The position numbers and the translations under genes were made by a program. Of a stretch of DNA of 64,000 nucleotides, positions 23,822 to 24,539 are shown piece after piece. Location of the stretch: contig JAGGVE010000034.1 of assembly GCA_021163505.1 (NCBI GenBank), positions 11,726 through 75,725 of the forward strand, in the 5' to 3' direction. Each line of letters starts with the position of its first letter. Position 1 is the stretch's first letter. Source of the DNA: Candidatus Iainarchaeum sp. (lineage in GTDB: Archaea > Iainarchaeota > Iainarchaeia > Iainarchaeales > DTGL01). The notes beneath the pieces are model-generated. The model was given only the letters and a program-made list of their open reading frames with translations, did no database searches and was not told the origin of the DNA.

Positions 23822-24240
23822 TTATGAGGTCTTCCTATAACAGCTGAGAAATTTTGTCGGTGTTACAATTTTTGTATTTCCAAACCTTCTCAGCTTAAGG
23901 AGATGAGAGTCTCCAGTAACTATAAAATCCGCTTTGCTTTCACAGGCACACTCAAGAAACATATTATCACTTGGATCTTCTCTAATAATGTTTACTTGGC
24001 GTCTTGGGACAACAACTGACGCTGTGGAAAGAACAAACCTCTTTAAACGTATTTTCTTTTGTTTTGAAAAATAAATTTAGGGTATTCTATCACTCTGGAA
24101 AATTCATTAAAGATGGAGGGAGAAATAATAACGGTAATTTTATTCTGAACTGTTAGTTTGAGAATCTCTCTGGATGATCCTTTCCAGCCAAAGGCCGAAA
24201 GCCAAATATTTGTATCTAAGACTACTTTTGTCTTGCCCAT
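23822..24240 (-). pseudogene. PIN-domain (VapC-like) toxin gene disrupted by a -1 frameshift in a T5 run
   Basis: N-terminal 65 aa 'MGKTKVVLDTNIWLSAF...EYPKFIFQNKRKYV*' (track ORF 24043-24240). The C-terminal half continues in another frame: 'FSKQKKIRLKRFVLSTASVVVPRRQVNIIREDPSDNMFLECACESKADFIVTGDSHLLKLRRFGNTKIVTPTKFLS...', carrying the conserved PIN acidic residues and the IVTGD motif. T6 instead of T5 (plus-strand 'gaaaaat' at about 24068-24074) restores a protein of about 140 aa. Confidence 0.6.
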
Positions 24241-24506
24241 CTAACAGCCTCTTTAATATCGCGTTTCGTTATTTTCTTTCTTTTAAATTCTTTTTCTGTA
24301 GCGTCAACCAGTTCTCTAAACTCCTTTTCAATATCTGGAAGTTTAATCTTCTTAAAGAAGATGCCATCCTTCACCATAACCGCGGCAAACAGCTCACTTG
24401 GCTTTAGACCAAGCTTTTTCCTGTATTCCTTCGGAACAACAAGCTGCCCCTTTGCAGACATTTTAACGATTTCAACCATAATATCACCGTATGTAAAGTT
24501 AAACAA
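24222..24506 (-). CDS. AbrB/SpoVT-fold (VapB/MazE-like) antitoxin
   Basis: 'MSAKGQLVVPKEYRKKLGL' swapped-hairpin motif. Overlaps the start of the PIN gene by about 19 nt. Real start probably Met10 or Met16. Confidence 0.6.
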   Translation of the reverse strand: MFNFTYGDIMVEIVKMSAKGQLVVPKEYRKKLGLKPSELFAAVMVKDGIFFKKIKLPDIEKEFRELVDATEKEFKRKKITKRDIKEAVRWARQK

Positions 24507-24539
24507 TACTACTTTTAAACCTTTTTACTAAAAGTAGTA
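24507..24539. promoter_or_regulatory. perfect 11-bp inverted repeat (tactactttta-N11-taaaagtagta) in the vapB promoter, a candidate autoregulatory operator
   Basis: Read directly from the sequence. Embeds a TTTAAA TATA-like element. Immediately upstream of the antitoxin start. Confidence 0.5.

Follow-up and report, generated by a model that had tools for sequence, protein, structure and literature searches.

A VapBC-type toxin–antitoxin locus with a frameshifted PIN_3 toxin gene in a Diapherotrites archaeon

Introduction

VapBC pairs are the commonest toxin–antitoxin systems in archaea, and it is routine to find the toxin broken next to an intact antitoxin. In the enteric VapBC systems of Shigella flexneri pMYSH6000 and Salmonella enterica LT2, inverted-repeat operators overlap the core promoter, with VapB dimers on the operator half-sites being bridged by VapC dimers (PMC3384007, PMC3378870). 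For archaea, the first experimental example of toxin–antitoxin autoregulation is only recent, and in this case a vapBC operon is autoregulated through a pseudo-palindrome beside the TATA box (PMC13488343). As for the toxins, the PIN_3.COG1569 family has been put in the VapC group of PIN-like nucleases, whose members are described as "typically toxins from TA systems" (PMC5499597).

Here, we describe a vapB-vapC pair from the metagenome-assembled genome (MAG) of a member of the Diapherotrites (DPANN), found in a 64-kb stretch of DNA (the window, meaning the whole of what was analysed). The locus belongs to a known kind and is ordinary within it, being an archaeal VapBC-type pair in which the toxin is broken and the antitoxin and promoter are intact. 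We give a probability of roughly 0.8 to its being a VapBC-type module whose toxin was killed by a genuine one-base deletion.

Gene organization and protein families

The pair is flanked by gatE and a gene for an IF-2B-like isomerase, in the order gatE-vapB-vapC-IF-2B, with gatE and vapB being divergent and their promoters facing apart across a shared spacer. All features of the locus are on the minus strand. The antitoxin gene (24222–24479) is intact, encodes 85 residues with an N-terminal AbrB/SpoVT-type DNA-binding domain, and sits directly upstream of the PIN toxin gene in the same orientation, its 3′ end overlapping the toxin start by 19 nt. A homologous AbrB-type gene is likewise directly upstream in 68 of 82 related PIN_3 loci. 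Together with the profile matches for both genes, this arrangement agrees with the first-pass annotation of a vapBC-like type II module with overlapping genes, and by gene content and order we classify the locus as a chromosomal type II toxin–antitoxin operon of the VapBC kind. No paralogue of vapB or vapC was found elsewhere in the 64-kb window, and when genome contigs were scanned for the repaired toxin, the sole match was a distant one from the Chitinophagaceae (L001; 29% identity), which is uninformative on orthology.

The antitoxin scores 30.2 bits against TIGR01439 (cut-off 28.3), placing it with the AbrB/MazE/SpoVT domain proteins, and falls slightly under the cut-off of Pfam MazE_antitoxin (PF04014; 23.1 bits against 24.7). 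NCBI names the protein (MCD6247434.1) as an AbrB/MazE/SpoVT family protein, and its 85-residue sequence is identical on 17 contigs. Against PDB sequences, the antitoxin had no convincing match: the hits, a stretch of RNA polymerase β′ and 2glw (E = 0.086), were spurious or weak. While the first-pass annotation had rightly recognized the AbrB type and the overlap with the PIN gene, it had the antitoxin begin at a TTG (24506). The start is almost certainly the ATG at 24479 instead, because a Shine-Dalgarno-like GGTGAT lies just 5′ of it (24483–24488) and all homologues and gene calls have 85 residues. In relatives, GGTGAT or GGAGG occurs at the same position before the antitoxin start.

As first annotated, the PIN gene is split between two frames. 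Its open reading frame starts at 24240 and runs to a premature stop at 24043, giving a 65-residue N-terminal fragment (24043–24240; MCD6247433.1), with the remaining domain lying in a different frame that stays open between 24076 and its stop at 23822 (84 codons plus stop; 23822–24076; MCD6247432.1). Each part matches complementary halves of the same two profiles at 37–46 bits, above the curated cut-offs: the N-terminal part covers positions 1–60 of PIN_3 (E = 7e-9) and 1–52 of TIGR00305 (E = 4e-12), and the C-terminal part positions 71–114 (E = 7e-9) and 67–115 (E = 1e-9), respectively. The repaired 139-residue protein reaches 78.4 bits against PIN_3 (PF13470; cut-off 27) and 86.6 bits against TIGR00305 (cut-off 29.15). 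The expected PIN match was thereby obtained, with the family being PIN_3/TIGR00305/COG1569 in the VapC group of PIN-like nucleases and not PF01850 proper. To our knowledge, the PIN_3 subfamily has no solved structure and no known or tested target.

The full set of acidic residues predicted for the repaired protein is indeed encoded, with Asp9 and Glu46 in the N-terminal part and Asp89, Asp92, and Asp111 in the C-terminal part. Among 54 homologues, Asp9 and Glu46 are invariant and Asp92 and Asp111 are at least 90% conserved, so that the C-terminal frame does keep its conserved acidic residues on alignment. As no PDB sequence matched a profile of the PIN_3 alignment at E ≤ 0.01, structures were compared instead. 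Here, an AlphaFold2 model of the intact allele (pLDDT 93) was compared by Foldseek, and the best PDB matches were the VapC toxins 5x3t, 3zvk, 6sd6, and 5ecw, with TM-scores of 0.6–0.68. The repaired protein is thus confidently predicted to combine the full acidic set with a VapC-like PIN fold. Moreover, the intact allele compared with that of L003, a syntenic locus from a sister lineage, gives a dN/dS of 0.15/1.71 (about 0.09), alike in both halves, which indicates that the toxin gene was formerly under strong purifying selection.

Promoter and candidate operators

Upstream of the antitoxin, a TATA-box-like element, TTTAAAAG (24512–24519), is positioned 33–40 nt 5′ of the ATG and is preceded by an A-rich, BRE-like AAAAAGG. 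Its position and sequence are common to relatives, being TTTAAAAG in L100–L102 and TTTAAATA in at least 10 more distant archaeal relatives, and the two elements probably form the core promoter of the operon. A scan for sigma-70 promoters and intrinsic terminators was disregarded, as it is inapplicable to an archaeon. Following the TATA box is GTTTAAC (24498–24504), a small palindromic unit of the form GTT-N-AAC and a candidate antitoxin binding site. This unit is contained in a 33-nt block (24494–24526) in which every position agrees with L003 (100% identity). Between the divergent promoters, by contrast, identity to L003 drops to about 46%, and synonymous sites are saturated. In the upstream regions of 15 relatives, which share tandem GTTNAAC after the TATA box, there are 19 copies of GTTWAAC against 0.56 expected (about 30-fold), and the whole window has only four, one of them being the copy at 24498–24504. 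On these sequence comparisons, it is GTTNAAC, and not the 11-bp palindrome described next, that is the cis-element conserved family-wide.

The perfect inverted repeat reported at 24507–24539 was confirmed. Its 11-bp arms, TACTACTTTTA (left, distal; 24529–24539) and TAAAAGTAGTA (right, proximal; 24507–24517), are exact reverse complements with an 11-nt spacer between them, and they bracket the TATA-like box at a centre-to-centre spacing of 22 bp (two helical turns). The right arm, which adjoins GTTTAAC and extends into the 3′ portion of the TATA-like box, is matched at 11 of 11 positions in L003, and the left arm at 9 of 11, with no variants in strain alleles. Across the 64-kb window, the palindrome occurs at chance frequency (for perfect inverted repeats with 11-bp arms and a spacer of ≤20 nt, one was seen versus 1.08 expected) and is unusual only by position, with P being about 0.012 in the 126-nt, 23% GC spacer and about 0.006 in the 80 nt upstream of the start.

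The palindrome alone may be the operator of the antitoxin, and as such it is a plausible candidate site to which we would give a little less than an even chance. Just as probable in our estimate is that it is no operator but a chance AT-rich feature, or a quasi-symmetric part of the TATA/BRE core promoter, with GTTTAAC 3′ of the TATA box being the real VapB site. The whole-window count speaks for the latter, as does a right arm that is mostly TATA box, though a repeat of this sort has a probability of only about 0.01 locally. In L003, the two left-arm changes are uncompensated in the right arm and the best inverted-repeat score at this site is not significant (P = 0.31); L100 and L101/L102, on the other hand, each have inverted repeats of their own, which surround the same TATA/GTTNAAC core and enclose the TATA box (P about 0.02–0.05 each). 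The identity of the promoter block could reflect the core promoter itself (BRE/TATA/initiator), yet the left arm, which borders the conserved block on its 5′ side, is 82% conserved versus about 46% for the adjacent spacer, with dS saturated. The tandem GTTNAAC shared by the 15 relatives sits where an archaeal VapBC has its pseudo-palindrome, an element with experimental support, on the downstream side of the TATA box (PMC13488343), whereas the 22-bp spacing of the palindrome arms suits two DNA-binding dimers joined by a toxin bridge (PMC3378870).

Family-wide, the longest perfect inverted repeat upstream is significant at P ≤ 0.05 in 17% of loci, with a mean arm of 6.5 nt versus 5.6 nt in shuffled sequences; this excess is modest, and the GTTWAAC motif test is far clearer. 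A terminator or RNA hairpin was rejected as an account of the palindrome, which is flanked by two start codons pointing away from each other, is positioned 5′ of the inferred TATA box, and would form a weak stem of A and T only (−6.6 kcal/mol as DNA). No regulon of palindrome arms was detected in the window, where the sole other match (30927) has one mismatch and three matches are the chance level.

The toxin gene deletion

Codon 58 of the toxin gene is AAT (Asn) in intact alleles, and alignments with L002, L018, L019, and L003 reveal that the window has lost one A of an AA dinucleotide (24072–24073) just 5′ of a T5 run (24067–24071), changing TTTAATTTTT to TTTATTTTT. The first-pass annotation had placed the split at the T5 run and proposed that T6 would give an intact protein of about 140 residues. 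In fact, inserting one T there does restore the 139-residue protein, but the actual lesion is the lost A. The intact 139-residue gene is found on three near-identical metagenome contigs (L002, L018, and L019, from three samples: JGI 3300033148, JGI 3300014869, and ENA ERZ27227315) that are 99.2–99.4% identical to the window over the 881-nt cassette, and all three carry the same T5. This comparison with orthologous loci confirms the frameshift, counts against homopolymer length as its cause, and rules out T6 as the ancestral state.

The deletion allele is present on contigs of seven assemblies (ENA ERZ23499504, ERZ23499535, and ERZ23499514; Logan SRR21462133, SRR21462135, and SRR21418560; JGI 3300017593), which include strain variants 10–12 substitutions apart in gatE. 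It is linked to an A/C substitution at 23825, and SAMN18353079 is among the samples carrying it. Among the compared AbrB-PIN_3 modules, the broken toxin is restricted to the window's strain group. Because the deletion recurs in seven assemblies, distinguishable strain variants included, we consider it to have truly pseudogenised the toxin gene and not to have arisen in assembly, a judgement that rests on agreement among assemblies, several of which may share one study site. Disrupted relative to intact close orthologues, reproducibly across assemblies and with linked substitutions, the gene has the marks of a recent pseudogene. Moreover, since its acidic residues are divided between a 65-residue product and a second frame, with no single polypeptide bearing all four, the locus is a pseudogene of the PIN_3 family and not a working member.

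That the frameshift is instead a sequencing or assembly artefact, with the gene being intact in the organism, appears very improbable. The lesion does lie in a low-complexity A/T stretch, AAATTTATTTTTC, beside a homopolymer, and a related assembly (L007) lacks another single nucleotide, in the adjacent IF-2B gene, meaning that single assemblies are not error-free. However, the identical deletion was recovered through four pipelines (NCBI MAG, ENA, Logan, and JGI) in two distinguishable strain backgrounds, which also speaks against the possible read error at the T5 run implied by the first-pass annotation. The intact-gene contigs come from other samples and show linked substitutions, such as that at 23825, and the loss of a base from an AA dinucleotide, not from the T5, is atypical of homopolymer error. 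Less credible still is a bypass of the split, by a −1 slip of tRNA-Phe on the T5 (A-TTT-TTC) or by transcriptional slippage, that would yield some full-length VapC and make the site an attenuator of toxin dosage and not a knockout: a −1 shift on the T5 would restore the exact frame needed (...KFIFSKQKK...), and the C-terminal frame is still stop-free and without further disabling changes, but the 54 homologues are each in one frame, as are the orthologues and near-identical alleles, which share the T5, so the site has not evolved for recoding, a T5 is short for efficient slippage and does not fit the X-XXY-YYZ heptamer pattern, in Rfam no structured element downstream passed the gathering threshold (the lone match being a sub-threshold human lncRNA model), and the lack of further decay is as expected for a very recent mutation whose alleles are 0–1 substitutions apart.

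Functional implications

For the VapBC-type module with its genuine deletion, the following mechanism can be proposed. In the intact form, the 85-residue VapB-like protein would dimerise through its AbrB/SpoVT swapped-hairpin N-terminal domain and bind its own promoter, with its C-terminal tail presumably neutralising the toxin. The 139-residue PIN_3 protein would be a Mg2+-dependent RNase with an active site made up of Asp9, Glu46, Asp92 (with Asp89), and Asp111. Most likely, VapB dimers on the palindrome and/or GTTTAAC sites exclude TBP, TFB, or RNA polymerase, and by analogy with the enteric systems, VapC dimers bridging the VapB dimers would normally strengthen this binding. In the window strain, the A lost from codon 58 would end translation after 65 residues, and with the active-site residues split across two frames the toxin is expected to be dead. 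The result, of recent origin, would be a locus reduced to its antitoxin, an orphan repressor, whose repression should be weaker since VapC bridging is lost.

A second module in the window has hicB at 19094–19315, and its hicA toxin gene has lost 188 nt relative to L002. Separately, the vapBC cassette of the window is 99.4% identical to that of L002, while the adjacent IF-2B gene is only about 83–92% identical. Two toxin-dead modules in 64 kb, along with near-identical cassettes across roughly 90%-identical lineages, hint at cassette turnover and exchange. It is conceivable, albeit unlikely in our estimate, that this DPANN population is repeatedly disarming its toxin–antitoxin cassettes, keeping the antitoxins, and exchanging cassettes between related lineages. 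If so, the retained antitoxins would serve either for "anti-addiction" immunity or as free-standing regulators, and selection in an archaeon that is reduced and host-dependent, not random decay, would have broken the toxin. The locus in itself matters little. Nonetheless, the natural pair of intact and dead alleles, one base apart, offers a control that is already at hand for tests of a PIN_3 toxin, and the tandem GTTNAAC units after the TATA box make a testable operator prediction for archaeal AbrB-PIN_3 modules.

Comparison with known systems

The enteric VapBC systems resemble the present locus in having an upstream AbrB-type antitoxin, an overlapping PIN toxin of about 135 residues, and the acidic quartet. 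The model of the intact allele compares with the enteric structures 5ecw and 6sd6 at TM-scores of about 0.64–0.67, but with only 17–22% identity. In contrast to those systems, the toxin here is of the PIN_3/COG1569 family and not PF01850 proper, and is frameshifted, and the promoter has archaeal TATA/BRE elements in place of −35/−10. Rickettsia felis VapBC2 (PDB ID: 3ZVK) is similarly a pair of AbrB-type VapB and PIN VapC, solved on its own operator, and ranks third to fourth in the Foldseek comparison, though it is bacterial, has 17–18% identity, and has an unrelated operator sequence.

Natrinema gari NgVapBC1 is a haloarchaeal counterpart, a vapBC operon with negative autoregulation via a TATA-adjacent pseudo-palindrome (PMC13488343), whereas at our locus there are only candidate sites. 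NgVapB1 appears to be of the RHH type, going by the VapB grouping and the promoter name in that paper, while the antitoxin here is of the AbrB type. Moreover, the NgVapBC1 element, GTGCTAC-N4-GTATTAC, is found downstream of its TATA box; here the palindrome arms bracket the TATA box and only GTTTAAC lies downstream.

A further likeness is to the metagenomic AbrB-PIN_3 modules (P0002–P0054, L003, and L020–L104), which share the gene pair, the overlap, the length, and an archaeal-type TATA box followed by GTTNAAC. Nevertheless, these relatives have two to four tandem GTTNAAC units with a 9-nt period, whereas the window and L003 have a single unit and, unlike the others, 8 extra nt (GTAGTATT) after the TATA box plus the 11-bp palindrome. 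L003 is syntenic (gatE-vapB-vapC-IF-2B), with 73% identity in the toxin and 84% in the antitoxin.

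Gene organization and toxin fold

The locus is of a known kind, namely an AbrB–PIN VapBC module with a recently pseudogenised toxin, and is located on the minus strand between gatE (plus strand, starting near 24605) and an IF-2B-like isomerase gene (plus strand, 22826-23797). Here, the vapB-like antitoxin ORF (85 aa) runs from an ATG at 24479 to a stop at 24222, is preceded by a Shine-Dalgarno-like GGTGAT (24483-24488, minus strand), and overlaps by 19 nt with the N-terminal piece of the toxin ORF (start 24240, stop 24043; 65 aa), while the C-terminal piece occupies another frame (24076 to the stop at 23822; 84 open codons). 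Profile searches identified the antitoxin as AbrB/SpoVT-type (TIGR01439, 30.2 bits with a cut-off of 28.3), with Pfam MazE_antitoxin slightly below its cut-off (23.1 bits). Moreover, the two toxin pieces matched complementary halves of PIN_3 (profile positions 1-60 and 71-114) and TIGR00305 (1-52 and 67-115), each alone exceeding the curated cut-off, and a one-base repair gave a 139-aa toxin that scored 78 and 87 bits, respectively. In this respect, the first-pass annotation of a vapBC-like module with a split PIN gene was accurate. By exact-sequence look-up, the window belongs to a 'Candidatus Diapherotrites archaeon' MAG and lies on one of its contigs (91,411 bp), where the toxin pieces are annotated as two proteins (MCD6247433.1 and MCD6247432.1).

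In an alignment of 54 homologues, D9 and E46 never vary, D92 and D111 show conservation of at least 90%, and D89 is nearly invariant in a closer set (n = 17). The 65-aa product retains only D9 and E46 and is thus incapable of assembling the active site. AlphaFold2 modelled the intact allele with confidence (pLDDT 93, pTM 0.87), and the solved structures that match it best are those of VapC toxins (M. tuberculosis 5x3t, Rickettsia felis 3zvk, and Shigella 6sd6 and 5ecw), with TM-scores of 0.6-0.68 and 14-22% identity. In the Foldseek ranking of the PIN_3 model, the top match, slightly above the classical VapC toxins, was PcrIIC1 (8wmm_G; E = 1.3e-5, TM-score 0.63), a PIN-like accessory protein of the CbCas9 complex. 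A profile search of PDB sequences with the PIN_3 alignment returned zero matches, which agrees with the PIN-superfamily catalogue, where PIN_3.COG1569 has no listed structure and is assigned to the VapC group, 'typically toxins from TA systems' (PMC5499597). Comparison of the intact allele with that of L003, a syntenic sister-lineage contig with the same gatE-vapB-vapC-IF-2B order and a toxin of 73% amino-acid identity, gave dN = 0.15 and dS = 1.71, the N- and C-terminal halves being alike, and the toxin gene has therefore been under long-term purifying selection.

The upstream palindrome and the promoters of relatives

A palindrome with perfect 11-bp arms, TACTACTTTTA-N11-TAAAAGTAGTA, lies upstream of vapB (24507-24539, minus strand), exactly as first described. 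On its own it is unremarkable, since the window contains one inverted repeat with perfect 11-bp arms no more than 20 nt apart and first-order Markov simulations of the window predict 1.08. Its position is remarkable, however; a repeat of this kind would arise by chance with a probability of about 0.012 in the gatE-vapB spacer (126 nt, 23% GC) and of about 0.006 in the 80 nt that precede the vapB start. Synonymous sites are saturated between the window lineage and L003, and yet a block of 33 nt (24494-24526) shows 100% identity, spanning an A-rich stretch, TTTAAAAG, the right arm (24507-24517), and then GTTTAAC, while the left arm (24529-24539) matches at 9 of 11 positions; both arms thus lie in constrained sequence. 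Just upstream of the left arm, between the divergent promoters, identity to L003 is only about 46%. We consider the palindrome a plausible candidate operator. The strongest rival to this reading, which concerns the palindrome only, is that the repeat is core-promoter sequence or chance and that GTTTAAC is the true operator. In favor of this are the chance-level frequency of the palindrome, the two left-arm changes in L003 without compensation in the right arm, the top inverted-repeat score of L003, which does not stand out (P = 0.31), and the enrichment of GTTWAAC in promoters of relatives, with 19 copies in 15 upstream regions of an archaeal-looking subgroup against 0.56 expected.

These relatives come from 80 collected metagenome loci (L020-L099), and of 82 loci inspected, 68 have a homologous AbrB-type gene directly upstream of the PIN_3 gene. 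Promoters of the closest, archaeal-looking subgroup are strikingly alike, with an archaeal-type layout of a TATA box (ACATTTAAATA), two to four tandem (A/T)GTTNAAC copies of 9-nt period, a GGTGAT/GGAGG Shine-Dalgarno, and the start codon. Only four GTTWAAC copies occur in the 64-kb window, one of them in the vapB promoter (24498-24504). Bacterial subgroups carry GTAAGA-N4-TCTTAC and ATACAA-N3-TTGTAT palindromes 10-25 nt before the start codon, and such subgroup-specific short palindromes are candidate operators of an uncharacterised toxin-antitoxin family. Three intermediate relatives found via the antitoxin (L100-L102; 62-64% identity) have in common with the window the core AAAAG-TTTAAAA-GTTNAAC-TTT. 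Their inverted repeats, AGTAGAAAAGTT-N9-AACTTTACTACT in L100 (11/12 matched) and AAAGTTTAA-N3-TTAAACTTT in L101 and L102, include or enclose the TATA box and each have P ~0.02-0.05. Compared with these three, both the window and L003 carry an 8-nt insert (GTAGTATT) that follows the TATA box and precedes GTTTAAC, and this insert provides the right arm with its outer portion. From this promoter comparison, the constant cis-element across the family is GTTNAAC adjoining the TATA box, and the 11-bp palindrome is a lineage-specific elaboration around that core.

The one-base deletion

Three near-identical metagenome contigs, L002 (JGI 3300033148), L018 (ENA ERZ27227315), and L019 (JGI 3300014869), share 99.2-99.4% identity with the window over the 881-nt cassette and encode an unbroken 139-aa toxin (P0001 or P0057), so the frame is unsplit in these orthologous loci. 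The frameshift itself had been correctly recognized, though its attribution to a T5 run that should be T6 does not hold, for while inserting a T restores the frame, the run (24067-24071) is T5 in all three intact contigs as well. Instead, these read TTTAATTTTT where the window has TTTATTTTT, and thus one A was lost at 24072/24073, in codon 58 (AAT, Asn); the equivalent AA is also found in the more distant L003.

A sequencing artefact is unlikely. The deletion allele, as the exact 65-aa product or identical DNA, is on contigs from seven assemblies (ENA ERZ23499504, ERZ23499535, and ERZ23499514; Logan SRR21462133, SRR21462135, and SRR21418560; JGI 3300017593), is linked to an A/C substitution at 23825, and occurs on two or more strain backgrounds that can be told apart, given that L006 and L008, which carry it, are separated from the window by 10-12 gatE substitutions. 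On this agreement among assemblies, we conclude that the deletion is probably a real mutation, although one of the assemblies does contain another 1-nt deletion, in the IF-2B-like gene. The latter (L007/L013, ENA ERZ23499514; equivalent to window 23597) splits that gene into 58-aa and 263-aa products and may reflect either strain variation or faulty assembly; individual assemblies of this set can contain indels. The gatE substitutions of L006 (SRR21462133) and L008 (SRR21462135) are packed within about 50 nt (25561-25609), outside of which both are nearly identical to the window, and look like a short recombination tract or hypervariable patch. Slippage by -1 at the T5 run would return reading to the correct frame, but the orthologues have an unsplit gene, the run is short, and a stimulatory element is not evident. 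Frameshifted contigs differ among themselves by 0-1 substitutions in the cassette, which implies a recent deletion and is too little variation for assessing relaxed selection.

Possible cassette exchange and a second toxin loss

Another toxin-antitoxin module with a dead toxin is found in the window (minus strand, 19016-19315), where an intact hicB-like ORF (19094-19315, 73 aa) remains. At this position, L002 (1988-2447) has hicB and a 77-aa HicA (PF07927), and the window lacks 188 nt, most of hicA, with TGAGG microhomology flanking the junction. In addition, a 3.4-kb cluster between the IF-2B gene and hicB (19373-22264), encoding a 186-aa putative regulator, a UbiA-like prenyltransferase, and a radical SAM/SPASM protein, has the same order in L003 (6441-10201) and is missing from L002, in which hicBA comes straight after IF-2B. 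Compared with L002 (1-1901), the window has 99.4% identity in the vapBC cassette and its promoter (23785-24684), whereas the adjoining stretch with the IF-2B-like gene (22789-23784) is about 83-92% identical in most 100-nt bins. This sharp shift near 23785, just past the toxin stop codon, is visible only on the IF-2B side, as the L002 contig ends on the gatE side, and suggests that the cassette was recently recombined or transferred between roughly 90%-identical lineages. Together with the hicA loss, it suggests that toxin-antitoxin cassettes are exchanged between lineages and toxins repeatedly lost in this population.

Proposed regulation and comparison with known systems

The palindrome arms have a centre-to-centre spacing of 22 bp, or about two helical turns, and bracket the inferred TATA box; the FitAB operator has a similar layout, with 8-bp arms and 14 bp between. 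VapB dimers may occupy the candidate operator half-sites and be bridged by VapC dimers for cooperative repression, and the complex bound on the arms would shut out TBP and TFB. Because the toxin is lost, VapB would be the sole binder, and weaker repression would be expected. The bridged arrangement is modelled on characterised VapBC systems, in which VapC dimers bridge VapB dimers on operator half-sites and repression is cooperative (PMC3378870; PMC3384007). The single archaeal case that has been studied has a negatively acting pseudo-palindrome next to its TATA box, and repression there is stronger with the complex than with VapB by itself (PMC13488343).
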